Under the pieces are notes generated by a model, which ran no database searches, had not been told where the DNA came from, and saw nothing but the letters and a program-made list of their open reading frames with translations. Positions 1 through 53,700 of a stretch of DNA of 64,000 bases are shown piece after piece. Both the position numbers and the translations under genes were made by a program. Position 1 is the first letter of the stretch. Every line of letters starts with the position of its first letter. The DNA is from Hydrolagus affinis (taxonomy: Eukaryota), in the NCBI GenBank assembly GCA_012026655.1, contig JAAILG010000680.1:1-64000 (forward strand), given 5' to 3'.

Positions 1-814
1 ACGTGAAAGGCGCTCTATAAATGTAATTTGTTGTTGTTGTTGTTGTTATAACATAAACAACATGGTTGTCCAGGCCCTCCCTCAAGGTGGGGCTGTTTTT
101 TTTTTATTGGATGTTTGTCTCTCAGCCTTTTCTTATCTAACTTTCAGAAGCGGGAAGGGATGCTCCACACGTCTCACGTTACAGAGGAACTCACCAGCAC
201 GACTGAGTAAGTTACCATTCAGTATCATATCTCTTCCCTCCCCAACATCAATCCTTGTACTAATCCCCACTCCCACCATAATAAAATTGCAAGGACTAGA
301 TCTTTTCAGACAAATTTCTAACCTCACTAGTACTGACTATACAGAAAATATTATATTACAATAAAAACATTGATTGAAAGCATGGGGAGGAAGGCAGTGA
401 GGCAGAGGGGCTGTGCAATGGAGTTCGAGAGATCGAAGGAGAATATCAGAAAGTTCAACTGCAGATTGTGGGGCAGGCAGGCGGAGGACATAAAGCAGGC
501 CATGGCCAGCCGAGTGGAGAGAGCTGCCAGGTCAATAGGATTTGAAGAGGTCAGAGGATAAAGTAGGGGAGAGTCCATGGAGGAATTTTAATGTGAGAAT
601 GAGGATCTTGAATTTGATGGGGTATCCAGTTGTGCTTGACGAGTTGTGAGGGTGACAGGTTCGTGGAGCCTCTTGCGAGAGAGGATATGAGCTGCAGCCT
701 GCGAGGGTGGAGCAGTGATCAGAGCATTGGTATATTAAAGCCTAGACACAGAGTTAATGTACTAACATTGCACCTGTGGTTTGTTATGCCTAACTGACTT
801 GTTCTGCTTTGCAG

Positions 815-3800: not shown

Positions 3801-4527
3801 AGAAAGCTTTGATCAGAAGGTTTGTGCTGGCTTGTTCTTCACTCAGAATGGCCATGGGGCCATGGAGGCTGGGAGGAGTGGGGAGTAGGAGGAGTTGACA
3901 TGTTGGGGGTAGGGGCTTGATGGGAAGGGAGGAGAGACATAGACGCCAAGGAGGGGGGTTGGAGACGCATAGGCCGAGGGTCTGAACACAGAAGATGGAT
4001 GGGGGAGAAGAGAAATGGAGGCGCACGGAGGTGGGGGGTGCGGCATGGTTAAATGAATGAAATTAAATGATCGGTTGTTTTGTGCAGGTCCATAACGTTT
4101 CACTGGCCTTCGAGCTGATGCAGGATGGGGGCCTCAAGAAGCCTAAGGCTCGGCCGGAGGGTGAGTGTGAGATGAGAGAGCTAGTCACTGCCACAGCGAA
4201 CTCCCGTACATTGCAGCTTCTCCCCCACACACTGTAGCTCCTTTACACCTGTACCCACGACCTCACTGTACATTGCACTTCTCTATCTGAGCCAAGTGAA
4301 CTCCCTTGCCTCAGTGTGCCAGTTTTGTTGCCTTGCTCTCTCGGTTTATTCCATTTTGGAGTTTGCTGAATCAGTGATACACCTCTCTTTTTCTCTCTGT
4401 TTCTCCTCTCTCTCTGTCCAACTGCCCCACCTCCCCCCGCTCTCTTGCAGATGTGGTGGGCCTGGATCTGAAGTCCACACTGCGAGTCCTATACAACTTG
4501 TTCACCAAGTACAAGAATGTGGAGTAA
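815..4527 (+). CDS. PARVB: beta-parvin, 3' coding exons only (gene begins upstream of the window)
   Basis: Exons 815-834, 1660-1721, 2968-3036, 3718-3819, 4088-4160, 4451-4527 have AG/GT boundaries and consistent phase. They translate to (E)LMMGRFERDAFDTLFDHAPDKLSVVKKSLITFVNKHLNKLNLEVTELETQFADGVYLVLLMGLLENYFVPLHNFYLTPESFDQKVHNVSLAFELMQDGGLKKPKARPEDVVGLDLKSTLRVLYNLFTKYKNVE*, the parvin CH2 domain. MMGRF, KLSVVKK and KARPED indicate beta rather than alpha. Confidence 0.95.
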
Positions 4528-6303
4528 CAGCACTTGCAGTGGCCAAGGGCCAGCACTGCAGGGGCTAGAGCCTTGCTGGTCACCAGGCCCGTTTGGGGGT
4601 GGAGGAGGGGTTAAATTATGAGTCTTGTTCGAATCAGCGAGCGCTGTGTTATTTCTTACCGATTGGGGGACATGGATTCTCTTCGTATCGGTGAGGTGTT
4701 CATAAATTTGCCAAACTATTCCCACAAACATCACTCCCACTTTATAGTGAATCCTGGAAATGTTTTGAGACATCTAGATGATGTGATAAGGCGCTGTATT
4801 AAATGCAAGGTTATTATTATTACTTTCCTGGTAAAGCTTTGACCGGCAACAGCCTGTCTCATTTCAATCAGTGAAAGTCAATGGCTCATGCACTTGCCTT
4901 ACTCCATTTTTGCTCTTGCCTGCGCTCTAAGCTACCTCCTCATTTGGTTGAGGGCTTTTATGTTTTGTTGTTAACCTTTAGGGGAGTGAGGAACTTTCTC
5001 CAGCTCTGTATTGGGCAGCAGGAGTAGGCTTTAACTGTCACTGAATATCTGATTCACACGGTCAGAGATAGGAGTCACAAAGGAACATCTTGATCATTCA
5101 TCACATGCCAGGTCAGTGTTTGGTGCTTATCAGCGTCACTAGTTCCCAAAGAGTTAAGGGCAAACTGCAGCCACTTGACCTGGGTAATTGGCCCCATTTG
5201 CAGCTAGGGGTTGGTAACAAGTCTCATAATTTAACCCCCTCCACCAGCACTCCCATTCCTGTCAAACCACCACCCCATTGGCTGTCACTAATTGGCTTAA
5301 CCGGCCCTACTTACAGCCCTACGTTCAGCCCAATCCCATTCCCTGTCCCAATACAGGACCGTTCACTCTGACAATGGGGCCATCCTGCACGTGTGAGCAG
5401 CCACCAAGGTAATTACGCTGGTGAATTCATTCCTCTCCCCTCGGTTGTCAGGGTCTACCACTGGCTTCCAAGCACCAACCAGCTTTGTGTGATTTCCCCT
5501 CACCCCCTCTCAGTATTCCCCACTGCACTGTCACCACCTGTCATTATCACCGTGAGGTATTTAATGTTGATCAGCTTTAGTTTTGACTGACTCCCTCACC
5601 CACGTGTGGTAACCTCACCTGAATAGTTAGAACGATCTCAACTGTTTCCAAATGTTAATGTGCTGTCAGCCACAGTGCCTGTCTGAAGCCGCTGCATAGA
5701 GCAGACTCGTTTACCTGAAGTGTTTTGTTTAGGGCTTATATTTGAATGGTATATTCTTCCTTCACATTGTTTACAGCAGTATTGTCACTGGAGTGTTTAA
5801 CACACATGTACTTGAAGTATCTGCATTGACCTGCACATCTGCCTTTTGTGAAACTGTGAACCCCTAATAGCAAACCTTATGATCTGGTTTGTCTGGATTT
5901 GTTTATCTTTCCTGTCTGTGTATGCCTGTCTGAGAGAAGTACAATAGTTTCTGGCTGCCCACCAGCAATTGTCCACTCTAGTATTGAGCCTCACCAGAGA
6001 CTTCGGTTGTACAGACAAACCTACACAAAACCCACGATGTGTGAAAAGGTTGATTGGTAGCCCACCATTCACAACATGGGTTGTGAATGAGTTGTTGGGT
6101 ACAGTCAAGTCCTGCACATGACATGACTACCTGACCACTGAGGCACTCGTTCACTGTACTCTGAGGCATTGGGAGTCATTTTGCCCCAGCCTTTGGTCTG
6201 GGTCCAGCTTTCCTGTACAATGTGACTGGTTATCAGATTGAGTGGGTAATACACTGGATATCTTTTCAGTGCCGTATTCATAACAACCCGGCAAATGTCA
6301 CCG

Positions 6304-6403
6304 NNNNNNNNNNNNNNNNNNNNNNNNNNNNNNNNNNNNNNNNNNNNNNNNNNNNNNNNNNNNNNNNNNNNNNNNNNNNNNNNNNNNNNNNNNNNNNNNN
6401 NNN
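6304..6403. other. assembly gap (100 N)
   Basis: Run of 100 n characters, followed by a G run. Confidence 1.
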
Positions 6404-18500: not shown

Positions 18501-19526
18501 ATGCTCAGATACACATCCACTCAGTGGCACATACTGGAACACAGGAACACACACTGGTAGATGCAAGCTTGTATACTGTGGTTTCTTTGTGCATTTTATC
18601 CACAGCTTCACAATGTGACTCTTGCACTGGAGATTCTGAAGGAAAATGAAGTGCAGATAGAGTCCGTCACTCCAGAAGGTGGGTGAGCGTTTGGTGGAGG
18701 ATATTTTTTTTAATGATCTGAAAAGGTTGTAAACATTCAGTGCTCTTACTTTGTCAAGTTGTCAGTTGTTTTTCATCTATCTGACAACTAGTTTGTGAGG
18801 TTCTGAGATCTGCAGCACCTTGGCACGTCCTTCTGACCTGAACGGTGCTATACAAATGTAAATTGTTGTTGTTGCTGTTTTCCTCACTCTATCTTCTCCT
18901 GATATCATATTCTACCTCCTCCACCTCAGCCACTCCCGATCATACATAATAATAATAATCCTTACATTTCATACAGCAACTGATCACATTGTTAAAATGT
19001 CTCGAAGCACTTCACCAAACACACTGTAAAGTCCTGACGAAGGGTTGTAGACCCGAAACGTTGACTCTTTTTCCTTTCTCCATGGATGCTGCTTGACCTG
19101 CTGAGCTTCCCCAGCAACCTGTTTTTGTTTCAGATTCCCAGCATCTGTAGTATTTTGTGTTTTGACACTGTAAAGTGCACTGATTGTGCATTTTGTGGAC
19201 CAACGCGGCAGTGAATTTGCATAAATTTCCACAAATCATGGAATAAATTACTCAGGCACACAAGCTGGCTCATTCCCAATGCTTCACTGGAGCATCACCC
19301 TAGACTATAAACTCAAAGTCCCTGACATGGAGGTTGAATCCACAACCTCTTTAAAATAAAAGAATGTAATGAGTATTTCACTTTTCTAAAACTAAAATGT
19401 GCCATCAGACGTTACACCTCACTCACTCAGTGTGCTTTTCTCATGCCACCAGATATTGTAAATATGGACAGAAAAGCCACCTTTCGTGTCTTGTACACCT
19501 TGTTCAAAATGTACAAGAACAAATAA
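9592..19526 (+). CDS. PARVG: gamma-parvin, complete, 12 coding exons, 309 aa
   Basis: Exons 9592-9640, 10639-10703, 11453-11555, 11890-12033, 12830-12945, 13682-13737, 14629-14645, 16299-16360, 16833-16901, 17709-17810, 18606-18678, 19453-19526 sum to 930 nt in frame. Peptides such as FLIDWINLTLKQDHIVVQSLEEDMYDGLVLNHLL, ILNKDLLATLHLLVAV, FANGVILILLIGQLEGYF, LHNVTLALEIL and DIVNMDRKATFRVLYTLF match gamma-parvin. It lies in tandem after PARVB, as in mammals, and shares the 62/69/102/73-nt exon sizes with PARVB. Confidence 0.92.
9868..10300 (+). repeat. unclassified interspersed repeat (multi-copy in the window)
   Basis: Core cacagtactccagggcac(a/t)(g/a)ctgat(g/c)a recurs at about 1299-1382 (-), 13270-13380 (+) and 49190-49480 (-). 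Other segments recur at about 14850-15010, 29200-29362 and 32930-33120. Confidence 0.6.
10795..11115 (+). mobile_element. tRNA-derived SINE (SINE2-1_CM-like), full length
   Basis: A-box tagctcagtgg, B-box ggttcaattcc, Deu-like ctgtgtgcaattagctg, L2-like 3' end, (ATT)n tail. Confidence 0.8.
11694..11860. repeat. 12-bp minisatellite (ATCACCCAACAT)n decaying into GACATCA units
   Basis: Several exact ATCACCCAACAT units in PARVG intron 3. Confidence 0.85.
13951..14240 (+). mobile_element. tRNA-derived SINE (SINE2-1_CM-like)
   Basis: Same head, body and (ATT)n tail as the other copies. Confidence 0.8.
19030..19066 (+). ncRNA. minimal type-I hammerhead ribozyme motif
   Basis: AGTC-CTGACGA-A-GGGT(TGTAG)ACCC-GAAAC-GTT-GACT gives stem I AGTC/GACT, core CUGANGA, stem II GGGU/ACCC, GAAA, loopless palindromic stem III (AACGTT) and a GUU cleavage triplet. 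Confidence 0.7.
19033..19164 (+). mobile_element. short non-autonomous Penelope-type element carrying a hammerhead motif, flanked by direct repeats
   Basis: ACACTGTAAAGT occurs at 19021-19032 and 19165-19176, and the element interrupts a SINE tail. A near-identical copy lies at 31309-31445. Confidence 0.75.
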
Positions 19527-21906: not shown

Positions 21907-24900
21907 TCAGCTGTATGGTTTTTGTGCCAGTAGAGTAGTCAGCTTGATCTTGCCATCCATGGAAGCTGTCAGGCAGGTGCCACAATCCAACGCGGTACAC
22001 CAGTCCACAGTGACCACTGGAGCTCTATGCCCCCCCAGAGATAGGCAGGTTTCCAGACTTCCTTCAGCACCCGCCAGCTGAAAGGGAAATCAATCCAGGG
22101 TTTACAATGGCTCTGCAACAATTTCAGAGTGGCCAGCAATAAACCCTCAATGTTCCCGGTCCCCTTGTCACTCCCCAGCAAATATCTCCCCTCCCCCACC
22201 AGCAGACATTCAACCTGCCCCACCACCCACGAGCAGATACCTCCCCCACTCCACCCACCAGCAGACATCTCTCCCATCCACCAGCAGTCACCTCCCCCTC
22301 CTACCAGCAGACACCTCCCCCACACCCATCCCAGTAGATGCCTTACCTTGTGAATGATACCACCAGTAGAGGAGCAGGTGAGGACATAGTTTCCCTCTGA
22401 ATCAAAGGCAAACAGTCTTCCTCGCGGCACCTGGACCTGCCTGTAGCCGCTGTATCCTGACAGCACGAAGGGGCCGATAGCATCAGCCTGCACCACACAT
22501 TCAGAAACCTTCTCTCCGCTCTTATGGATGTTCCACTGAATGAACTGGGTCAGGGAGAGAGTAAAGCAGTCACTGGACTCTACGCACACCAAGTGAAATC
22601 ACTCACAAAATATACTGAGCCCCGCGATCATTACAATGTGATCAGCAGCCGGCCAATTACTGCGGTAAGAGAAATGAGGAGTAGTGTGAGAGGGAGAGCC
22701 AGGGAAGGAAAGAAAGAGAGAGAGCTTGAGAGGATGAGCCGGGGACAGAGCAAGAGCGTGTGAGGGAGAGCTGAAAAGAGAAGGCCCAAGTCATGTGGGG
22801 GAAAAGAGAGAAAGTGAGTGAGATAGATAAGCCGGAGAGAGAGATCGTCCCCACAACCCCAAAAGGATAGTTAGCAATTTGAGTTCTGACAAGCATGGAG
22901 TTGAGCCCTCACTGGGTGAATGGCAGGTCAGTACCTGCTGTGACCTACCTTCCCATCTTCCCCAATACTGTAAACCGAGTTTTCATCGTAGCTGAACTCC
23001 ACAGAGTAAACCTCCCCAGAGTGAGAGTGCCAGCTCATGGCACAGTCATACCTCTGCATGTCTGAGAGAGAACAGAAAAAACTCAACCTCCACACTCTGC
23101 ATACTCAATGGGACCATTTTAAATAATAATAATCCTTCCATTTGATACAGTGCTTTTCATGCTGGGTTGATGTCCTAAAGAGCTTCACAGCCAACTGTAA
23201 AATGTAGTGACCGTGTGTTTTGTGAGCAAACACAACAGCCAATTTGCCCCAGCAACATCCCACAAACAGCTACAAAGTAACCAATTGTATCTGGAGGATT
23301 GTTGGCCAATACACCTGGAGAGAGACTCCCATTACTTTATAAAATGTACCACAGGATCTTCAAAGTCCATCTGAACAGCCATGGATGGGATCTCAGTTTA
23401 AAGTCTCATCTGAAGTATGGCACCTCCAACAATGCAGCACTCCCCAGCACTGCACTGGAGTGTCACCTTAGACTGTATGAGTTCCAAGTCCCCAATGTGG
23501 GAATTGTCATCACAATCTTCTGACTCAGAGGTTAGAGTACATGTGACTGAGCCAGGCTGACATCGAGTAGGGTCAGTGTTCTTGGTTCATTAAAATATTC
23601 CTTTATTTTTCTTTACAAATCATATTTTCTTGATCACTTCCTAAGGAAAACCCCCCCCAAAATTCCATTCCTCTCAAGAGACCCGTCTGAGTGAAGCAAA
23701 CACTTGTTTGGATCAGCCTGGCAAGTCTGATTCTTGAATCCCTTTGATTCCCCCGAGAGAGATTCTCATCTTACCAAACAGCCTGATAATACCGTCAGCA
23801 GTCCCAGTGACCAGCAGGTTTCCGTTATGGTTGAAAGCTGTACAGTTGATGGCAATGGGATCAGGATCCAGACAGAACAAATGCTGGGGACAAAACAGAA
23901 TGATTGCGTTGTGGTCCCAGTCCAACTCGCTGGAAATCTTACATACTTTACAAAGCAACAACAATTTGTATTCAATATAGGATCTTTCACACGGGGTTGT
24001 GCCTCAGAGCTCTTAAACCATACCACCAGCAAATATCACAGCTTTATTCTGGTTGGGTGTTTCATGTGGTGAGACTCTGCGAGTTTGAATTCATTTCCCC
24101 CCATGCCCCACAAATCCACTGTCAGTACTGGCCCCTGTGTAACCTGAATACGAACAATGACCAAAGTTGGAACAAACATGCTTAATTAGCCTCCACACCA
24201 TCACCTCTAACCCTACCCCTCCATTCCTTCTTCCTCCCTGCATGACAAACCTAGTACTCAAAGCATTTCTGGTCAGGTGAGGCTGGTCCATACCTGTTGT
24301 TTCATGGTCTTGGTGTCCCAAAGAAGCAGTTTCCCTGGAACCAGATTCAGCCCCTTTCCTCCCATCTCTGATACTGTTCCTGTCCGTATGCTTGGAGCTG
24401 CTGAGGAGCACACAAAGGATGTGCCACTGGGACTACACGCCAGGGATAAAATTCTGGGAAGCAGAAAGGGAGAAGAGACTCACCATGTGAACCCGGATTT
24501 AGTGCAGCCACTGAGGCTGCCTTTTACTCATTTCCTATTTCATGTCCTATTCTTCAGTAAACAGTGTGCCTGGCTCAGTTGGTAGCATGCTTGTCTTTGC
24601 GTTAGAAGGTTGTGGGCTCAAGCCCCACATTGGGTCTTGAAGTCATAGTTAAAGAGATTCCGGCTGGTCAATTCACTCTACAGTACATTCTGTGAAGCGC
24701 GTTGAGACATCTGGAAAGTGCTATATCAAATACCAGGATTATTATTTATTATTATATGTATGGTTGAAAAGCTAAACCTTAAAGTAAGATATTAAGGCAG
24801 ATAAAGAGATCTTAAGGCTGGGAGTTCCAGAGGTTAGAGATGTAGTGATTGAAGGCACGGTTACTGATGGTGGCACAGTCGGGGACGACCACTCTTTGTA

Positions 24901-27900: not shown

Positions 27901-30900
27901 CTGAAGCACACAGCCTGTTCCATTATCAGTTATCAACATAGCCACACTTGGGACCCTAGTGGTTCCTTCTCGCTTCCGTCCACTGGGCATTAATATAGCA
28001 CCGCAGCTCATCTCTCCAATGCCCTGCCTATCACCAGCGGGTCACTGTCTGACCTTTTTCAGCACTGGAGCTACTCACTAACTCCACCCCACCCCCCCAC
28101 CTACCCCAATACAAAATTCACCCATATCAACATACTCCAGGCTTATCCGTGAGTATCTTCCAAAACACGTCGCCCACTGGCAATCGCTGAACATATTCAT
28201 CCCCTCGTAGAAAAGCGGCTCGATTGGAATCTGTTCCGTTCTCTGAACGTCTGGCTTCAGTCGTGGACTTACTGATTGTATGAAACATGCAACTGGTCTC
28301 CACGCCGTTATCAATCCCGAAATATGATCACATCTAAATCTGATTTTCTTCATTGGAAACACACTGCCAAGGATTTAAGAATTCCAATGACTAATTTGAT
28401 TGCCATGTATGCGCCCTCTCCACTGCTTTCAACCCAGTGATAAGTTGAATCAGATCTGGTCAGAATTCTGCAGTGTGGATCACAGCACTTTGTGAACAGA
28501 TGATCACTTCCTTTCAGTCCATCTCTTGATGTAGAAATCTTGCTCACTCTCCTCATTGCTGCCACACACTGTATTGATGGAATCAATGAGCTATCTGTAA
28601 ACTATCCCCAGATCCTTCTCCTGGGTTGTGTCCTGCAGCTTCTAATGTTAAGTGTACGTTTCTGCAGCTCATTTTCCAGTCAGTCTTATCACTTTACCTC
28701 AGCATCCATTTGTCAATCCGTTGTGTACTCCACCAAGTTCCCTCAAAATTCAGTTCACTTGCTTTCCATTAGCAAAATTCATACAATTTCACAGCATTGG
28801 CAAATGTAGACACTTTTTGGCTCACATTCCAACCAATTTCCATGCACTTTAAGAAATTCCAGCACAAACTCAAGGCCCCTAAATTATCTTTCACATAGAA
28901 TAACTATTTTGTATCCTTCACTAAGAAGGGCAGAAGACATCAGTGAATTTATAGATGTTGACCAAAAACACATGTTTAAGAGGGTTTTGGAAGCAGGGAG
29001 AGAAGCAGCAAATTAAAGAGGTTTGGGGAGAGTTTAAGAGTGGGGGTATGGGCACCAAGTTTGGAAAGGAATCTGTGAGGCTCATTCAGCAGGTGAGAGG
29101 CAAAAGAGTGGATGAAACTGGAGAGCAAAGATCCAGAGAAGATGTCAAAGATTAAAAAAAAATTGATCCTTGGATGTCTGATACATCCATGCTTAAGAGT
29201 ATCCAATACCAGATAAGTTCCATGCATGCCATCTACAAATGGGAAGTTTTCATGTCTGAAATGGAACACACTCCACCAATGTGCGTTGAGGTAACTGCAG
29301 GTGTCTAACCAGCTAAATCCGCATAGCTTGCCATTATGAGCACTGCCTGGCAAGCTTTCCCGTTCCTTATTATCAGGCATGTGGAGTAAGGAAACTTGAC
29401 CAAGGTTTCGCCCTGACTTGCTGGACATCTGATTTCAATGTGATGGGAAGATGGTTATAGGGCCCTTTGACATGTCGGCCACTTGATGTAGTTAAGGTCC
29501 AAGTTTAATGCACCAGAGGCCTAAACCATTGTGCTTCAAAGAAACTCATTGGGTGTAAGTTTTAAGATTTTTGTTATGTGATCATGTGCATTCCGACAGG
29601 TTGATTTTACAAGAGAATTTGTTCTGGTTTTTCACCTGATTGTTGGATCCGTCTTTCTTTCCCAAGGCCCCGGGGCTCTGTGGCAGCTGTGACAAGCCTG
29701 TGTGCAGCGAGCTTTTTGAAGGTACCTTTTTGCTCTGTGGAAGAAATGATGAGAGGAACGAGCCTGTTTTTGGCTGAGACAGCGCCAGTAAGCCCCTCTG
29801 ACTGGATAATAAGTCTCTGAAAATAAACAACATTGCATGTTGAAGACAAAAATAATCCTTACTTTTCATATAGAGCCTTATCATGCCTTCTTAAAGTGCT
29901 TCACAGTATATATTGTAAAGTGAATTTACTGTATATTATAGGAAAAATGGAGCAGCCAATTGCACATGGCAGTGTCCCACAAATAGTCGGTCAATTGAAA
30001 TGATCAATTTATTATTATTACTACTTTTTTGAACGGAATTATTAGCCAAGGAATAGTGACCCATCAATCAACTAACAACCGGGTTCCTACCCGGTAAACA
30101 GAGGTGTGTGGAGTAAGCAAACTTGCTCAACATTTCGGCCTGCCAGGAATCAAACCCAGGTCTATCTCTCACTTGCAAGGCAAGTGCTCTAACCATTGAG
30201 CTACAGCATTCCACGTGTTAACGGGGTTGATGTGAGCATGCGACCAACCAACCCTCTGACAAACTGGCCCAAGCGAACAACCCTACCTCTGACTGACTGA
30301 CTGACTGATTGAATGAGGATGGACTGACTGATCTTGACTGCACTAGCCTGAACAAACAAGCAACCTTATCAATCAAATGACTGATGTTAGTTGAGCAGGT
30401 CTGAGAAAGCAACATTGGCCGAGCTGGGCTGAGTGACTAATCCCAGCCAGGGTAGCAGTTGGCAAACCTACAATCAGGGGATTTCAGTTGAAACTGAAAA
30501 TCAGAAACCCTCCACATATTACACAGAGTGGTTCAAGATAATTGTATCCTGGCCAACAATCCCCCAAGACAAAATCAGTCTTTCGCTTCCTGGTTGATTG
30601 TGGGACACTGCTGTATACAAATTGGATGAAACATTTAGCTACAAAATACACTTTACGTTAACTGCCGGGAACCGCTTTAGGATGTCCTCTTGGCTTGATG
30701 GGCGCTGTGCAAAATGCAAGGATTACTATGATAGATAAGATGTTCAACTGGAATCAGATTCAGCAAGAAAATTGATTTAATGCTTTGGATTTAAGTGGTT
30801 AGAATGTTTATTGTCTGTTTTCTAGTGGGAGAACCCACTTCTGTTTGACTGCCTTTTATTTATGTTACTTACAATTCTGTGTCTCCAAGACGGTCCATGT

Positions 30901-33900
30901 TTTGTACGTAGTTAGGCAGTTTATGATGGATCATCTCCTCCTCCGATTTCTTCATTTTCTGTTCTGTTTGCATAGCAAACAGCTGCGGGAGAAAGACGGA
31001 ACGGCACTCTGATCAACACAGCTTAAAACATGACAGCCTCAATCAATTTCTAAGTTAATAGAAGCTTGAAGTGCACCAATGTGTGAGTCAGAGCAATTTG
31101 TTGTGTTAATCTAGTTTATTCACTTCACGGCCTTTGGTTTAAGAGATTTATTTGTCCCAAGAGATTTATTTGGCCACCGATCACTTGCTGGCATTATGGT
31201 CACAAAGATAGTTCATACTGTTATTTTGTGCTCCAACTTGGCTCAATTGATAGCACTCTCACCCAAATAAGAAAGTTGTGGGTCTACAACCCTTCGTCAG
31301 AACTTCCCAGTTCTGACGAAGGGTTGTAGACCCGAATCGTTGACTCTTTTTCCTTTCTCCATGGATGCTGCTTGACCTGCTGAGTTTCCCCAGCAACTTT
31401 TGTTTTTGTTTCAGATTCCCAGCATCTGTAGTATTTTGTGTTTTGTCTACAAATAAAATTGGTCATTTACTTTATGGCTGTTGTGGGACATTGCTGTGCG
31501 CAAATTGGTTGCCGCATTCACCCACTGTAGTCTATCCTGTGAACTTCTTTTGAGATGTCATGACAACATAAGACAATGTACCAAATGCAAAGATTATTGT
31601 TATTATCATGGATTACTGCAATTTAGTGGTTAGAGCTTTTGCCTCGCAAGCAAGAGGACCTGGAATCGATTCCCAGCAGGGCGAAACACTGGGCAAGTTT
31701 CCTTATTGCAAAGCATCTGTTTACCTAGCAGTAAGTAGGAACCCAACTGTTAGTTGATTGGTGAATTGCTTTTCCAGGGCTAATAATCCCTTCCAAAAAC
31801 AATAATAATAATTTGATCAATCAATTGGCTGCCACATTTCACCCACAAAAAGTCAATTCATTTTATATTATATTCTATGAAGCCACTTTGAGACTTCTCA
31901 GACGTATGCCGCTATATCAAATGGAAGGATTATTATTATTACCTCCTGCCCACTCACCACAAAACCCACAAGCCCCCCAAACTCTGGCCTGCTCGCACCA
32001 AACTCTAAGAGATTCAACTAAATTCTGTCTAAAGGACCAGTCACTTCTTTCTAGGAAACGTTCAATTGCACCGCTCTCTCTGTTGTTAAAAGAAACCATG
32101 AAGTGGTAAACATTGACACAAAATATAATGGGCCAAATGGCCTCCTGTGTGGCACATTTCTATGGTTTAAAGGCATCAAGTCCTACAAATGAACTCCTGA
32201 GTAACACTAATCAGTAGGAACCGTGGATCATGTCGGGTCCGAGTCCCAGAATTAAAGGGAATTCACGGCATTCTACAATAATCACTTGGCTAATGAACAC
32301 CACAAATTAGACCCTGATAATATTTCCAGCCCCACAAGATGTTACATTGAATATTTTGTAATGAGAACAACTTGCATTTTCTTTTTAATTTTAATCAAAG
32401 AATAACATCAATTTACAGGGCCATAGGAGGCCATTTGGTCCATCGAGTCTGCAATGGCTCTCCAAACAAAAAGTGAACTTTCAACTCCATCACCCTGCCC
32501 CATTCCCAAACCCCCTTCAAGCCTCTCATCCTTGCATTTGGTTGTGCATTCTTTCATATCTGGAAGACGTCACAAAGTGTTTTGCAGAATCCACTGTCAA
32601 GTGTAGCATCTGACTTTGCAGGCAAATGATCTGACACATGTAGAATCTTCAATGATACATCCACGGTTTCTGTTTCTTCCCTTCCCAACATTTCTGATTC
32701 CAGAGAGCTATTTTGGTCTGACACACGAAAACCCATCACCATTCCTAAGAGATTCCAAACTAGAAGTTTCATATGTGCATGGAAATTTCCCCATTTCTGA
32801 CATGTAACGCACTCTTGAGGGATGCACTTTGCTTATTTAATTTCAGAGAGTGGCCCAAGTTGGTGAGAACAAGGCTGAACAAGGCTTAGATACCCTAGAG
32901 TACATGTTCAGAAAAGTGCAGCAGTTTATCCAGGTAACATCAACATTGAGACTACTAAGTGGCAGGCTTGTCTAGCTGGGACCACTCTATCTATTAAGGT
33001 TTTGACATGCTGGGTTAACAGGAGACCAAGTAGAAACAATCCTTTTCCCAATTTCTGTGGATGAGCCAGGCTGTCCTGTGACATGCGGAGTGTTGCAGGT
33101 CCACCCAGCTCAGGAACCAGGATATTCATCGAGTACACAGGGAAGGGTTGATTCAATTCATTTGTTCCACTGGAGGCCTCCAACGTTTGCAATTCTGTGA
33201 AGAAAAGGACAGCCTTACCTTCTGAAGCAGGCTTTCATTTTCTTCCTGCAGTTGGAATGTCCGCTGCATTTCTGCATCAAAGTTCAGCAACACAGGAACA
33301 GGTAATGTAATATTAAAGAAATCAAGTACATTAAAAGCAATCTTATGGTCCAGCTTAATGACAATCTTGAAGGTGAACCTCCACATTCCTGGACTCAGTT
33401 AATGAAATATATAGGTTAGCTGACCAGTCCTCAGTTCCTTCCTCATTAATGTAACTGTAATCTTGGAGCTTGTCCAGTGATGGTTGACCAAATTAATACC
33501 TGGCTTGAAGGGCTAAGCTATGTGTGGCCTGGGTTTATACTGGTCAGAGTAGAGGTAGGTAAGATAGTAAACTACCCTATGGTAGAGAGATCATTACAAG
33601 TGGCAAAGCCTTAAACTCAGAGCCAGGACGGTTAGATGTTTAAAAAAGATAAACAGAAAGAGACTTGGGTAGTGGAAGTATTAAGGTGAAAGGAATGTGT
33701 GGTGCTGGGATTGAAAGATTGGGCAAGACCTAATAAACAGGCTTTTGATGGGATGAATAGCCTATATTTTTAAGTAAGCAAGTCTCCCTTCTATTTGCTC
33801 AAGCACAAGTCTCCTTTTCTCCTTTTTCCTCCCTTAGCGCACACCCACCTCCCACAATAACAGATAACAGCACACAAAGGATATGCATGCACTGGAACAA

Positions 33901-36460
33901 GACACTCAGGAAGTTGTGTAGTGACACCAAGAAGGTCTCTGCCCACTGTTTAGAGAAGTAAGTGGCAAAACCTGGGTTGGTCTCTGGGTTTGGAACAAAG
34001 GGGAGAATAAACCATTCCTTCCATTCCGGCTGGTTCTGCAACTCCAAGGCCAGTTTCTGGAAGAATTCATGTGTTTTATCAATCCGATTTGTCTGAAACA
34101 ACCAAAGGATATTCATTGTACCAAAAGCCCCAACAACATCATTCACTTACACAGCGCCCTTCATATAGACTAACATGGGGGGGGCTTCATAGAAATGGTG
34201 TTAGACATTGAACCTGAGAGGAAGGGGTAGGTGTCCATCGGTAAGAGTTTTTAGGTAGAATTTAAAGACAGTTGCACTTTCCTATAAAACATCCAGCCAC
34301 AGCATCTCTACTGAATCAAGGACAGTTGGAGCTGCATTGGAGAGTTTCGGGTTATGAACTCTTAAGCTCACTGGGGGTTCAGACTTTCTCAATGTCACTT
34401 TGGAGACCTGAGAAGTCTTTGTAGACCCTCTTAGGGACAAAATACTGTGGTAAACGGCATCAGAGAACTTGCTCCAAATGGTTGGCATGCAAATGGAGAA
34501 TTATAATTGAAGGTCAGCCTGATTCAGTCATTCTCACTCTCATCTCTCAGTCATTTGTACCTGGATTTCCTACAGCTTAGACTAAGATTTTAATGGAGTA
34601 CTGCATTATCAAAGGAACTGACTTTCGGATAAGACTTCATCCATCTTTGCTGTTCAGGTGAACGTTAAATGTTTCCCCGAGGTCCCAGCCAACAATATCC
34701 CAGCCAACAATATCCCACTCCCGCCACCCGATAAAATTAATCATTCACTTCATAGCTGTTAGTGAGACACTGCTGTGGTGCAAATTGGCTGCTGCGTTCG
34801 TCCACAAAATACAGGCATTACATTTTACAGCAACTCGTGTGAAGCACTTTGTGATGCCTTATAGTGAGAAAGCCTATGGTGGGGTACCTGGGCAGTGTGG
34901 ATCAGGTAGTGACGGTACAGGCTGGTCTTCAGTTTGTTGACGGTGTGACGATACACATCTTCCAGCCGCCTGAAAAGCTTGCGGTCCAGGTAGCTCCAAT
35001 AATCCCGTAAACCGTTCAGGTCATAATTCTGAATAAAATACTGCAGTTGCTCGACAATCTTATCAACCTGAATATAAAAACACAGAAGTCACAAGCCACT
35101 CAATAGGGCAAAACATGCACAAAATCTCCCCCACCCAACTCCCACAAATAAATTCTCCTGTAAACTATACTCGGTGTGCAATTCAGAGATAGCACCTGCC
35201 TTTTCAGTGGATATTAAAGATGCTACAACATTACTCAAAAAGAGAAGGGAGTTTCTCTCTCCCATTGTGCTGGCCACAATCCCCCAGATAAAACTGTTGA
35301 TTCACTCCATGGCTGTTTGTGGGAAACTACTGTGTGCCAATTGCCTGCTGCAATTACCTACAAAAATTGCTCCACTACACTTAACCCTGCGAAGCAATTT
35401 CAGATGTCCACTTGATGTGCTGTATCAAAGGTGAGGATTTATTATTTTATAAATTTTTGGATTAAAATATATAATAATCTACATTTGATACCACTGCTTC
35501 AGTTGCGACATCTCAAGGCACTTTGCACAATTTAGTATAAAGTGTAGAAAGTAAATACAGCAGCCAATCTGCACACATCAATATCCCACAAAATGTGAAC
35601 ATGACACCGCAAGAGAAACTCCGTTCACTGATCCAAGAGCATTATGGATCTTTAATGCCTGCAAAAACAGCAAAATTACATTTGTTTAGCACCTCTCATG
35701 TCAGGAGAACGTCTCAAGGCGCTGGACAGTTACTGCTTCAGACCCGAGCTAATGACAGGTGGGGTAGGGAAGGGGGGGCAAGGGCGGGCCTACCTATCAA
35801 TCACCGATAAATTACTAAGGATGGCATCCTGACAAATTAACAACCCTTCCCCCAGCCAGTATTGTACGAGAGTATCATCTTAGACTACGTGAGTTCAAGT
35901 CCGGATGTGGGGAATCTGTCAAGACCTCATAAACAAACATTGACGAATTGGCCTGATTTCATGGGCTGCTTCCATACAGTCCTGTAGCTCAGTGGTTACA
36001 GCAATCGCCTCATAAGTAAGAGACTTGGTGTCAATTCCCAGCAGGGCATTGGCAAGAAACCATGGGCAAGTTTCATTACTCCACATGCCTGATAATAATT
36101 CCTCAAGAAAAAAAATTGCTCACTTCAATCCACGAATGTTTGTGGGACACTGCTGTGCGCAATTGGCTGCCGCGTTTCGCCCACAAACATAAAGTCAATT
36201 CACTTTACAGTATATTCCGCGAAGCGCTTTGAGACGTCTAGAAGACGTGAAAAGCGCTGTATCAAATGCAAGGATTATTATTATTGTAAGTGATTGACCA
36301 GCCGCCACCGCAATCTCAAACCACATGCTGTACTCACTCGAAATCCTTTCTCTTTGTCCAATTTGCTCTCGGTCTCAAAGGCTTTGAAAGTGCTGGTGAA
36401 GCCTCGGTGAAGGAGGTACTCGCGGACAAGCGCGTCCGTGCGCTCCACTGCCGCGGCCAT
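21907..36460 (-). CDS. WDR91: WD repeat-containing protein 91 (endosomal Rab7 effector), complete, 15 coding exons, 738 aa
   Basis: Minus-strand exons 36338-36460, 34888-35067, 33885-34092, 33219-33301, 30873-30982, 29636-29816, 27340-27492, 26128-26309, 25584-25734, 24984-25078, 24294-24453, 23775-23883, 22949-23061, 22347-22544, 21907-22077 sum to 2217 nt in frame. Starts [21 protein letters not shown], contains [25 protein letters not shown] and [21 protein letters not shown], ends [20 protein letters not shown]. Confidence 0.96.
22170..22340. repeat. C-rich minisatellite (cccaccagcagaca...) in the last WDR91 intron
   Basis: About 6-7 imperfect units containing ccagcagac. Confidence 0.75.
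23122..23561 (-). mobile_element. Deu-domain SINE (SacSINE1-like), full length
   Basis: Minus strand: tRNA-like head (ggctcagt...ctctgagtcagaagattgtg), Deu core (ccagtgcagtgctggggagtgctgcattgttggaggtgcc...tcagatgagac), L2-like tail. Related copies at about 17110-17540, 39110-39450, 51330-51610 and 52115-52516. Confidence 0.75.
26600..27040 (+). mobile_element. CR1 LINE 3' fragment
   Basis: [15 protein letters not shown]...[13 protein letters not shown], typical of the CR1 RT C-terminus. Similar pieces at about 1780-2075, 12520-12800 (-) and 54430-54910 (-). Confidence 0.7.
29855..30210 (-). mobile_element. tRNA-derived SINE, long variant with an extra internal segment
   Basis: Reverse-orientation SINE containing ctgtttacc...ggaacccggttgttagttgattg, which the short copies lack. 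Confidence 0.7.
31280..31445 (+). mobile_element. second copy of the Penelope-type hammerhead element, with an inverted 5' duplication
   Basis: Near-identical to 19033-19164. Perfect 25-bp inverted repeat 31280-31304 / 31309-31333. Core GAAA is changed to GAAT (31334-31337). Confidence 0.75.
31615..31940 (+). mobile_element. tRNA-derived SINE, long variant with an extra internal segment
   Basis: tRNA head, ctgtttacctagcagtaagtaggaacc segment, Deu-like and L2-like tail. Confidence 0.7.
33302..33884 (-). other. U12-type (minor spliceosome) AT-AC intron of WDR91
   Basis: Minus-strand 5' splice site ATATCCTTTG, branch-point-like TTCTTTAAT about 10-20 nt before a terminal AC. Joining restores the conserved ...[15 protein letters not shown]. 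Confidence 0.9.
35978..36285 (+). mobile_element. tRNA-derived SINE (SINE2-1_CM-like), young CpG-rich copy
   Basis: Full-length copy ending about 50 nt from the donor of the first WDR91 coding exon. Confidence 0.85.
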
Positions 36461-40836: not shown

Positions 40837-43800
40837 TACCTCTGACAATGAAACACACCAGCAGCACTCGCTGGAGGGTAAACTTAGATTCTGTGAGTTA
40901 CACGTCCTAATGTGCGGCTTGAACCCACAACCTTCTGTCTCGAAGGCGAGAGAGTAATTGATCGAGCCGGGCTGACTGAATAAGAGTCAGAATAATCACA
41001 TTAATCTACAATCAGTTGCTAACACAATTTTACAGAATGTTGCTTACTCCAAATTCTGGATTTTACAGTTGGGGTTCCTCAGAGCCACAGACAGTTGTTT
41101 CATGCCCGAGTCTCCCAAGTTATTATTGTTCAGGTTCAGCTTAGTTAGTGAAAGGTTAGTACTGAGAGCGGAGACGAGGTCCTCAATACAGTCAGCTGTC
41201 AGACTGTTACCTTCCAACCTGGATATCAGAGAAATAACAGTGCATAAATTAAGCATTAATCCTCGCATTTGATACACCATTTTGGGGAGGAGGACTTCAC
41301 AAGTACACAGAATATGCTGTAAAGTGTAGTGACTGTGTGTTTGTAGACAACCATGGCCAATTTGCACAAAGCAATGTCCCACAAACAGCCATAAAGTGAA
41401 TTACTTATTTATCTGGGATATTGTCGGGACACCAGCGGAAGCTCTCTCAGGTACTGACAGCATCAACATCCAAGGATGCACACCCCATCTCACTAAGCCA
41501 GTTTGGAACCTTGGTGTCTTGTTTGACCCTCAACTATCCTTCCTACCCCACACCCGTACCATATCCCATCCTCGTCCAACTCCACTGGCTTCCCATCACA
41601 CAGAAGATACAGTTCAAGATCTTGGTGCTCACCTTTAAAGTGCTTCATGGTCTTTCTCCCCCACCTCTGTGACCTCCTAACCCTCTACCAACCTGCTGAC
41701 TCCCTCCACTCAACAGGCTCCGGTCTGCTTCATGACCCCTGCCTTGAATGCCACCATAGGCCAGCGAGTCTTCAGCCACTCTGCCCCCACCCTCTGGTAC
41801 ATCCTGCAGTCCCTCCAGCTTGCTCCCTCCCTTATCTCCTTCAAGACCCATCTCAAAACCATCCTCTTCAACTGTGCCTTCAGTCACCCTCTTTCCACCC
41901 CTACTCTCCATCCTCCCCGATCCCGCCCCCTAGCTCAAATCTGAAACACTGACTGTTCAGTGGGACGTCTTGGGACGTCCTCCCGACGTGAAAGGAGCTA
42001 TACAATTTTTGTAATGTAATCTTTGTTGTTGTTGTTGTTATTAGCTCAGTTTGTAGCACTTTTGCTTCTGGGTCAGAAGGCTATGGATTCAAGGCCCAAC
42101 TTGGGAGTTGGAACCCATACAGTCCAAGCTGGCAATCCAGTGCAGTGTTGGGGGATTCGAGAGGTCGAGGGATGTGCTGGAGACTAGAACCAGATGAGCA
42201 AAAGGCATGGGGAGTTGAGTGGGGTGTGAACAGGTGCGAAGTGGAGTGACAAAGTGTGAATTGATTTGTAGGTGGGTGTGAAGAGCTTGAAATCGATGAT
42301 CAATGCTCTCAACTATTTCAGAGCACTTTGGGTGACGGTATTTCACCTCACAGTTTTGCTTACCCCAGATTCTGTATTTTACACTCAGAGTTCCTCAGAG
42401 CCACAGCTAGTCCCTTCACTCCCAAGTCTCTCAGGTTATTATAATCCAAGAACAGTTCAATCAGTGACAGGTTTACACTGAGAGCGGAGACAAGGTCCTC
42501 GGTACATGCAGCTGTCAGTCCATTACTTGATAAACTAGACATTAGAGACATAAAGAAATACAACATGTTTACATTTCCCCAATGCCTTTCATGGGGACGT
42601 CTCGAGGACCCTTTCAATCCTGGCCATCAGCTTGAGCTAATGTAATTTTGTTGTTGTTGGTCTGCAGCCCGTGGAAGAAGGAGTTGGAAAATTTGGCAAG
42701 CAGGGAGTTAGTATAGAAAAGCGTGAAGCATAGTCAACATGTGAAGGCTGTATATAAATTTAAGTTGTTCTTGAGAGTTTAACAGATGAGTGAAATGTTT
42801 GCTCCAGATTTTATTATAACCAGTGATTGCCACAACCTCACACAGTGAGTGACTTACCACAGTTTCTGTATGTGACACTCTGGGTTCTTTAGAGCTGCGG
42901 ACAGTCGTTTTACTCCTGAATCTCCCAGGTTATTGCCCCATAAACTGAACACAGACAGAATCAGAATCAGAATAATCTTTGCATTTGAAATAACGCCTCA
43001 TCATGTCATTGAGATGTCTCAAAACCCTTCACAGAAATTAATGTAAAATGTAGTGACTGTTTTATAGGGGGACGCAGCAGCAAGTTGGCACGCAGCTTCC
43101 TGCAAACAGCCATAAAGTGAGTGATTGATTTGGGGGATTGTCAGCCAGGATATCAGAAGAGAGAAATTCCCTTCTCTTTTCTAATAATGCGGCGAGATCT
43201 TTAACATCGACCTGAACAGGCACAGATATGAGTTTGGTTTAATGTCTTATCCAAAAGATGTGACTCCGACATTGCAGTTCTCCCTCCAGCACTGTGCTGG
43301 AGCTTCAGCCTGGACTATATGAGTTCCAACTGGATTTGAACACACAACCTTCTGACTCAAAGGTGAAATGCTACCAACTGAGCCACACTGGTACCCAGAA
43401 CATGAGGGAATTATTGAAGGCATAGAAACTGTGTACCAGTACTCTATAGTGGGATAAGCATGGAATGAGTAATATTGGAACATAGAAAGATATAATATTA
43501 TTATTATACTGTAGAAGGATATACTGTACTTCAGGTTTGTGCACTTGTGAATCGTGGGGAGCAATCGCTGGATCCCTTCAGCTTGAACCAAGCAGTTACT
43601 GAAATACATCTCTCCCACAGTGTCACAGGGCTCCATGATTCTTGCCAGCACAAAGCAGTCAACCACACTCAGATGCAGGGCTTCCTCTGGGTATGTGTCC
43701 CCAAAGTTCAGGGCTTCTAACGACCTCATTGTTTGCCGCATCAGCTCCACATCCTGACTCTCAGACAGAAAGTGGAACAAGTCCATCAAATCCCTCTTGC

Positions 43801-50706: not shown

Positions 50707-53700
50707 TCAGTCGAGTAGATCCTAGTGGGGGGGGGGAAAAAAAACATTGAATATTTAACTTCTATGAAAAGGGTCTCTTGTGACCAAACATAGAAATAGA
50801 TGTACAACAGAGGCTGTGCTGACTCTCGGTGTATGCTGCCCTGCTCAATTCCTATCCAGCAGTGAGTTATCATGAATACTGTCAGCAACAATTTGCATTC
50901 ATATAGTGGCCCTCACACAGGGTAGAGTCCCAATGCTTAGAGGGGTGAAAGGATCAAGACTTAAATAACAATCTTATAATTGACACAGTGATTTTCACAT
51001 CAGGAGGAGATCCGAAAGAACTCCACAGGATATACTGTAAAGTGAAATGACTGCATTTCATGGGATTGTGGCAGTCCAATTTGTGCATTCACGGAATGAG
51101 TGACCATTTTATAATAATAATAATCCACGCAATTGATATTGCACTTTATCACGTCTTCGAAACATCTCCAAGCACAGAATACACTATAAAGTGAATTGAC
51201 TGTATATTTTGTCGGCAGAGGTAGCACAGCAGTTTTGGGAGTTCCCAGAGACTTCTGTTTTTGTTTCAGATTTCCAGCATTTTGCTTTTTCTCCACAAAC
51301 AATTGTGGTTTGAGGGACCTAATTAATATTATTATTTATCTGGGGGATTGTTGGCCAGGACACCAGGAGTGAGAAACTTTAGTATCTTTTTTGAATAGAA
51401 TCATGGAATCGTTAACATCCACCTGAACAAGTATACATGGGACCTTGGTTTAAAGTCTCATATGAAGGACTGTCACTAACATTACAATGATCTCCCAGCA
51501 CTGCAATAGAGCATCAGCTGAGAGTATCTGGACTTCCAAGTCCCACCATTGGGCTTTGAATCCACAACTTTCTGACTCAGAGGGCTACTAATTTAACCGG
51601 GCTGACACACACTAAGGCGGGCTGACACGCACTGAGCCAGGCGGACATACAGGCTAAATCAAACCAGGTAACTTACAACATCGGAATCGTCGTGGTAAAC
51701 TCTTTCTGTGTTTGACCTTCTGCTGTCCAGATCATCAGCGATGCACACCTCATCATTGCTACTCTGCAGCACCGAGTAACGGTAAACAAGACTCCTAGAA
51801 AATACATCACAGTGAGGGGAGAGACTCTGTGGAGGGCCTAACTTCCTTTCACATCAATAGGTCACCACTGACACCTCTTTCCATACATTGTGCTGTACAC
51901 CAAAGGTGGTGTCTATGTGAGCGACAGACCCTGAAGTTGATGATTGTCAAGTCTATCAAGAGCGTGAGGGGAGCAAGTGGCACCTGTGCAGTGAATGTGC
52001 ATCGCATACGCGTTACAACTGATCCTGCGTTCTCCCAGAACCAGGTTGCATAAAGCTCTGTATTTTAATTTCTGGGGCAAAGTACTCTCTCATCTATTCT
52101 TGCCCCACACATCCTAATAATATTTCTTTGCATTTTATATAGTGCCTTTTCACATAGCAAGACGTCTCAAAGAGTTTAAAAGATTTAATGTAATGCATGG
52201 TGACTATATTTTGTGGATCAAATGTGGCAGCAGCCAGCTTGCACACAGCAATGCCCCACAGACAGCCATGGAGTGAGTGACCAATTTTATTTGGGGGATT
52301 ATCGGCAAGGAATCTGGGAGAAACTCTTGTCTCTTTTTGAATAGTGCCATGGGACCTTTAAAGTCTACCTGAACAGGCAGATTGAACCACGGATTATCCT
52401 ATCAGCACTGTACTGGAGTGTCAGATAGGGACTATGTGATTCCATGTACTGACATGTGAGTTTGAACCCACAACCTTCTAATTCAGAAGCAAGAATGCTA
52501 CCACTGCGCCAGGCTGATCTTTGTGCACAAAAGAAGGCTGTAAACAGTGTGAAAGGTCACAAGCCTGATCTGGCTCAGTGGATTCTCTGTGAAGTGGCCA
52601 GGTTAGGGCCAAGGCACCAAATGAGATTGACAATGCTGGTCCACTCACCTCCCTCCGCACACATATTTCTTGCAAATTATGACAGCGCCTCCAATCATCA
52701 ATATTGACACGACCAACACGCAGAGAACAACGATGACCACAGAAGTCTTGGGTATCTGGAAATCCATCATCAAAAAAAATCTGACTGAGTTAACCAGCAA
52801 CAATCTACAGTATTACACTAGTGACAACACTTGGCAGTTTTCATCTTTAACCCCACAGAGCGTGTGAATATCAGCAGAAATACTTCCTGCTCTTTAAACA
52901 ATAACAACCCGCATTTATGAAGTGCCCTTCGCACAGGTGCCTTTCATGGCAGGAGGATATTTTAAAGTACTTCACAGAATAATCTGTGAAGTTAATTGAT
53001 TGTATGTTTTGTGGATGTGAATAGTGAAGTAGGTGATCAATTTGTAAGTGATCTGGAAGACTGTCCATCAGTAGACAGAAAGTCCCCTCTCTTTTCGGAA
53101 ACTACGGGAACTCTCTCCTCATCTGCCTCCCCAGCTCCTCCCTTCACAGGCTGCAGATCATTCAGAATTCTGCAGCTCGTGTACTCTCCCCATACCAGGC
53201 TTCGCGACCACATCACTCTCACCTCTCCCGTCTCCACTGGCTCCCATCCCCCAGAGGATCGAATTCAAGATCCTCGTCCTCACTTTCAAGGCCTATCTCT
53301 CTGACCTGCTGTCTTCCTATCAGCCTGCCCGTACCCTCCGTTCAGCAGACTCAGGCCTGCTCTGCGTCCACCGCCCTGACCACCCAACCACCGGTGGCCG
53401 AGCATTCAGCCTCTCTGCTCCCACACTGTGGATCTCCATCCCGCTTTTCAGAGGCTAGAGGCATAGAATTGGAAAGCTGGACCATAGACGGAGGGTGGGG
53501 GTCAGGGCAGGGGATGTAGAGCCAGCCCAGGTTAATTAATTGGAAGGGGAGGAGTGGGGTAAGAGATGTTTGGGAAAGTCCAGATTTAACAACAGCAAAA
53601 ACATCTTGCATTTATACAGTGGTCTTTATGCAGAGTAGCACCACTGACTGCTTAACAGTGCGGAACCTGATGCTGAGCCGGGGGAGGGATGAGTTGATCA

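Follow-up and report, generated by a model that had tools for sequence, protein, structure and literature searches.

A complete minimal hammerhead motif at the 5′ tip of a high-copy insertion, likely a truncated Penelope-like terminal repeat, in the last intron of a parvin gene

The last intron of a parvin gene in the 64-kb window (the whole stretch of DNA that was analysed) carries, in sense orientation, a short sequence resembling a self-cleaving hammerhead ribozyme. Does this motif act on the parvin pre-mRNA, or was it simply left there by a mobile element? Our answer, which we hold with a probability of roughly 0.85, is that a complete minimal hammerhead sequence forms the 5′ tip of a high-copy insertion of 132 nt, likely a truncated Penelope-like terminal repeat, and that in the parvin pre-mRNA the motif is predicted to be silent.

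The motif lies in the last intron of a gene that is likely PARVG

The exons and the intron concerned are as follows.

18606..18678 (+): penultimate parvin coding exon, in the joined reading frame; RNA depth 7.4, sense read class
18679..19452 (+): last parvin intron, 774 nt, GT..AG; distance of the predicted cut site 384 nt to the donor, 390 nt to the acceptor
19453..19526 (+): last parvin coding exon (likely PARVG), in frame and with a structure match; RNA depth about 10

Joined across the 774-nt intron, the two exons form one open frame that ends at a stop codon. Among solved structures, the last exon hits parvins (best E 0.00065); a search with the 24-residue exon peptide matched none. Because the gene lies downstream of another parvin last exon (about 4450-4530), we presume from synteny that it is PARVG. 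A first-pass annotation of this DNA had placed the motif in sense orientation in the last PARVG intron. The sense orientation and the last parvin intron are borne out by the GT..AG boundaries and the in-frame exons, and the gene name is only likely. Within the parvin gene, we found neither a second copy of the element described below nor another intact motif, and an assembly gap of about 100 N (about 6305-6403), which lies between coding exons of two parvin genes, may hide some.

Four of the 16 listed public runs were compared (likeness 85): three DNA runs (X1, X2 and X10) and one RNA run (X15). X15 is a poly(A) short-read single-cell library of a related organism (organism A), and 27 in 100 of the run was read. 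In this library, the parvin exons had a depth of 7-10, with all reads in the class expected of + strand RNA, and the unique intron bins had a depth of 0-1. The 15 joints listed (a further 228 were present) did not include the one between the two exons. Judged from the RNA depth, the intron is likely spliced out normally. Positions 19118-19132, in sense within the element, form a pyrimidine-rich run ending in CAG, which resembles a splice acceptor; RNA depth in the unique intron beyond it is close to nil and thus gives no sign of its use.

The motif possesses the complete core of the minimal type-I class

19030..19066 (+): minimal type-I hammerhead motif, core complete; predicted cut 19062/19063

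By hammerhead numbering of the sequence, stem I is formed by 19030-33 with 19063-66 (four Watson-Crick pairs). C3-A9 correspond to 19034-40 and are followed by an extra A at 19041. G10.1 (19042) pairs with C11.1 (19054) and closes stem II, which has 4 bp, or 5 bp if a U-G wobble with a 3-nt loop is counted. G12-A14 are 19055-57, A15.1 C15.2 G16.2 U16.1 are 19058-61 and H17 is U19062. The first-pass annotation had claimed an intact minimal hammerhead at 19030-19066 with stem I, both core boxes, a 4-bp stem II and an NUH triplet, cleaved after 19062. The numbering locates every one of these parts and gives the same cleavage position. The palindrome AACGUU, which had been taken as stem III, is also present. 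However, the helix III useful in a dimer is the inner ACGU (4 bp), because the outer A14-U17 pair would engage core residues.

A type-I minimal-hammerhead descriptor, the use of which the annotation had proposed, was run on both strands of the 64-kb window, and the only intact match was 19030-19066. None of 1000 dinucleotide shuffles gave a match to the full descriptor; the core pattern alone was present in 3 of 100 shuffles. None of the 9 Rfam matches up to E 10 is to a hammerhead family, and neither are the 2 matches at gathering score. Features of canonical type-I hammerheads are absent from the motif: helix I is only 4 bp, in contrast to the 6-bp helix with loop 1-loop 2 contacts, and there is no loop 3. 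We conclude that the motif is real and intact, that it is a sequence of an already-described kind, and that it is predicted to be inactive alone.

This kind is the min-HHR class of Penelope-like elements, described in 2014 by Cervera and De la Pena (PMC4209133). As described there, the class has a nucleotide added after A9, a G10.1-C11.1 pair and a palindromic 15.2-16.2, and occurs mostly as single dispersed motifs. Like the members of this class, our motif has the conserved core CUGANGA / GAAA / NUH, an unpaired A19041 between A9 and 10.1, the G19042-C19054 pair, a helix III shrunk to the palindromic 15.2-16.2 (C19059 and G19060), no loop 3 and a short helix I (PMC4209133). By our own count, C-G-U-U follows GAAA in 15 of the 56 published examples, as it does here (PMC4209133). 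The extra A before G10.1, which the annotation had noted as tolerated in a viroid hammerhead, is present and is no oddity but part of the class consensus, and the match to this consensus supports the earlier assignment to the Penelope-type minimal type-I hammerheads (PMC4209133). Our motif also shares with the class its membership of a large dispersed family, in which single copies come from truncated elements (PMC4209133). In contrast, no cartilaginous fish is represented among the 56 examples in the available portion of that paper. Helix II (4-5 bp) is at the short end of the class, and for this family the link to a Penelope ORF is presumed.

The motif is the 5′ end of an insert flanked by a target-site duplication

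19033..19164 (+): 132-nt insert, likely a 5′-truncated Penelope-like terminal repeat; ends 102 nt after the cut site, no poly(A)
19021..19032 (+): 12-bp target-site duplication, left copy; its last 3 nt are most of the stem I 5′ strand
19165..19176 (+): 12-bp target-site duplication, right copy
18946..19220 (+): old SINE-like repeat into which the insert landed; uninterrupted in three further copies

The three other SINE-like copies can be aligned on either side of the insert, and the interrupted copy is longer than they are by exactly 144 nt, which equals the 132-nt insert plus one extra 12-bp duplicate. The hammerhead is the 5′ end of this insert and is not free-standing. That the motif is the tip of an insert flanked by a target-site duplication, with a second copy in the window, was not in the first-pass annotation. 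Likeness to the family begins at 19030, which gives a 3-nt overlap with the left target duplicate, and these last 3 bases of the duplicate are also matched by family members (copy 2, and loose ends at 19030). The most parsimonious explanation is that 5′ truncation occurred at a match of 3 nt and so spared stem I. We considered, and rejected, the loose ends at 19030 as the family 5′ end; they mark the truncation of this copy.

Other pieces of the element are present in the window.

31309..31445 (+): second element copy (copy 2), 95.6% identical; 4 substitutions and one 2-nt indel
31280..31304 (-): inverted duplicate of the 5′ part of copy 2, perfect over 25 bp; fold-back, 4 nt away from copy 2
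51244..51280 (+): diverged 3′-part fragment, without the hammerhead

The 64 kb therefore contains two copies and one fragment. Copy 2 and the 19033-19164 insert end at the identical 3′ base. In copy 2, U replaces A15.1, and thus its core is broken. Together with its inverted duplicate, copy 2 would give a hairpin at 31280-31333 that is perfect over 25 bp (about -49 kcal/mol for 31275-31350) and would unfold the hammerhead. A clear target duplication was looked for around the copy 2 fold-back and was not found. On its left, the fold-back abuts an apparent SINE head. There is no tandem array at either copy, and a motif scan of the 64-kb window detected no clear remnant of a Penelope reverse transcriptase or GIY-YIG domain. 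The alignment of family members covered these two copies. In the public runs described above, no position of 19030-19066 appears among the 40 listed of 163 variant rows.

Two Rfam tRNA matches, 30140-30206 (-) and 35978-36049 (+), head a dense SINE-like family and are likely SINE heads, not tRNA genes. One segment of this family recurs 16 times in the 64 kb. The element pieces (19021-19176, 31260-31520 and 51190-51330) are all in or beside SINE-like repeats; this may be chance, because such repeats are dense here.

The family is very abundant and the insertion appears to be shared by related lineages

The summed contig depth over 19040-19099 was 3.4 million in X1, 2.0 million in X2 and 43,000 in X10, as compared with about 80, about 33 and 2-3, respectively, in the unique flanks. 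In all three DNA runs, the element depth was about four orders of magnitude above that of the flanks, where summed depth is not equivalent to copy number. The element family is a very abundant repeat. In the DNA runs, loose ends pile up at 19163/19164, and their continuations are mixed, A/T-rich and of low agreement. This pile marks the family 3′ end, 102 nt after the cut site. Longer family copies extend upstream past 19030, and the upstream sequence, which is partly shared, is absent from the window. In X2, a 1557-nt contig (record 19) contains the element at record positions 1419-1555, and its remainder could hold an upstream ORF.

In both X1 and X2, contigs of single-copy depth connect the unique flanks with the element, and the flanks in these runs diverge roughly 1-2% from the window. 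Because single-copy contigs cross the junctions in two lineages with this divergence, the insertion is likely shared; it appears to have been retained in two related lineages. Under a 31-letter rule, one of the four insertion-junction contigs counts (X1 record 6), and the others enter the element by 19-29 letters. X2 and the window do not differ over 18949-19057, of which the motif part is only 28 nt, too short for showing selection.

A lone motif is predicted to bury its core

Folding was predicted with energies that omit Mg2+, tertiary contacts and proteins. The bare motif folds as a rod (-10.8 kcal/mol, versus -7.5 kcal/mol for the open form), in which G5-G8 are paired with 15.2-17 at a probability of 0.82-0.98; the probability is about 0.5 in the whole intron. 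The active double hammerhead (-13.3 kcal/mol) is about 9 kcal/mol worse than two monomers (-22.6 kcal/mol). When the A14-U17 palindrome pairs are added, the double hammerhead reaches -15.9 kcal/mol, but the core residues are tied up. The fold of the 61-nt region is not more stable than that of shuffles (z 0.13).

Sequence collections gave the hammerhead pattern in one metagenome contig (L001) and in no viral sequence. L001 has an intact minimal hammerhead at 735-771 (-), between two ORFs, which has a 6-bp stem II, is 86% alike over 37 nt and passes the descriptor. This sole comparator is predicted to form the same rod, which may thus be the usual fold of the class. L001 was dropped as support for the Penelope link, as Pfam and Atlas named neither flanking ORF. 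A downstream 21-nt pattern was found in no viral and 3 bacterial loci; the bacterial loci were dropped as chance, the likeness being confined to 21-26 nt.

When min-HHRs were tested, a monomer showed no cleavage and dimers cleaved weakly (PMC4209133). The first-pass expectation that the motif is weak as a monomer thus agrees both with the predicted core-burying fold and with the published monomers (PMC4209133). On the folding model, we predict that the lone motif, with its core buried and no partner, is silent in the parvin pre-mRNA.

Reads of the element in X15 were equal on both strands (906/1045 and 822/812), and 89 in 100 of them continue into unlike sequence. Both features are as expected of passive read-through at many loci. 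Read beginnings or ends did not pile up at any place in X15, a type of library that seldom keeps cleavage ends and that has almost no intron reads at this locus.

The parent element is likely Penelope-like

In Penelope-like elements, neighbouring inverted 5′-truncated copies are typical (PMC8557442). Our element resembles them in its 5′ truncation with an adjacent inverted 5′ copy (copy 2, 25 bp) (PMC8557442). Further likenesses are a defined 3′ end without poly(A) and A/T-rich targets. Taken from such sequence features, the parent element is likely a Penelope-like retroelement. The hammerhead of the anole Poseidon element PAc cut only with the element protein in vitro (Frangieh et al. 2024, PMC11167929). 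In the available portion of that report, this hammerhead was dispensable for insertion in vitro and RNA-seq ends were not seen at the cut site; reverse transcription starts 111-118 nt into the ORF, and the cut site is at +26 (PMC11167929). As in PAc, the hammerhead here lies roughly 90-100 nt before the element 3′ end, a similar spacing, the targets are A/T-rich, and the RNA data (here one weak RNA run) have no read ends at the cut site (PMC11167929). In contrast to PAc, which is a full element with a cleavage-assisting protein, only a 132-nt end fragment is present here (PMC11167929).

We propose that a Penelope-like reverse transcriptase began copying at a point about 100 nt downstream of the hammerhead and proceeded backwards. 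It would have stopped at the 3-nt target match at the start of stem I, so that the motif survived intact by chance. Within the parent element, motifs of this kind may cut tandem transcripts as dimers or with the element protein. In the parvin intron, where the motif would have no partner and the rod would pair G5-G8 with the cleavage-site bases, it likely does nothing. The window motif is most likely a passenger.

Alternative explanations

With the same origin, the motif might nevertheless cleave parvin pre-mRNA, at a low rate and either in trans with other family copies or with the help of the element protein, without benefit to the host. We regard this as unlikely. The possible activity on the parvin pre-mRNA that the first-pass annotation had raised fares poorly: introns are short-lived, the gene has no partner copy, the dimer fold is predicted to be disfavoured, and no read-end pile is seen in X15, one RNA run and a weak test. 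Read ends did not pile up in the anole RNA-seq either, within the available portion of that report (PMC11167929), and even tandem dimers were cleaved weakly (PMC4209133). On the other side, the core is complete, partners exist, given the abundance of family RNA from both strands, and protein-assisted cleavage occurs in vitro for the anole element (PMC11167929). A wider version, in which core-intact sense copies are latent pre-mRNA cut sites that are switched on by the element protein or by ACGU pairing of two transcripts, is highly improbable. If it were true, the retrotransposon would cleave many host transcripts in trans, PARVG among them.

It is very unlikely that we are dealing with a different type of non-autonomous hammerhead element (retrozyme-like or SINE-like) instead of a Penelope terminal repeat. 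The insert is short, has a target duplication and is known here without an ORF. Animal non-LTR retrozymes, however, are 150-450 bp tandems with canonical motifs and abundant circular RNA (Cervera and De la Pena 2020, PMC7229834); our element resembles them as a short non-coding repeat with a type-I hammerhead, and differs from them in that it is not tandem and its motif is minimal (PMC7229834). Transcripts in X15 have no strand bias, in contrast to the one-strand RNA of the retrozyme type, and the poly(A) library would miss circles. The fold-back duplicate of a 5′ part and the partly shared upstream sequence of the longer copies also argue against an element of another kind. That the motif is a domesticated intronic ribozyme regulating PARVG, like the conserved intronic hammerheads of amniotes (RECK and others), which have the same type-I topology in a host intron (PMC6155905), is hardly credible. 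The sense orientation, the intact core and the insertion apparently common to related lineages would fit such a role. Yet sense orientation is a coin toss, this is one of very many copies, and the motif lacks the long stem I and the stable stem III that canonical hammerheads have, and matches no Rfam hammerhead. The insertion is young (95.6% identity to copy 2), and the core of copy 2 has decayed. The amniote hammerheads are canonical and kept across whole classes, whereas our motif is minimal and lies in a young high-copy repeat (PMC6155905). Thus, we retain the reading of a passenger motif at the tip of a truncated Penelope-like repeat.

As found, the element has little significance: a class known since 2014 gains one further family, from what is likely a cartilaginous fish. 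It would gain importance if intronic copies were to cleave host transcripts in vivo; the cellular role of these motifs is still open in the available portions of both reports (PMC4209133 and PMC11167929). We found no paper on such motifs in cartilaginous fish in a literature coverage that lies outside most subscription papers and the repeat databases.

Neighbouring loci

A coding-like exon at 21969-22598 (-), which gave no Pfam match, is one that we take to be WDR91-like. At 43247-45058 (-), a long single-exon frame contains NACHT and NLRC4_HD2 domains (Pfam) and is an NLR gene, the best relatives of which are only 39% identical. Of 14 hits to this frame, the top 4 belong to cartilaginous fish, and the host of the window DNA is thus likely a member of that group. 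The segment 60886-61296 (-) is a sortilin/Vps10 exon (Pfam).
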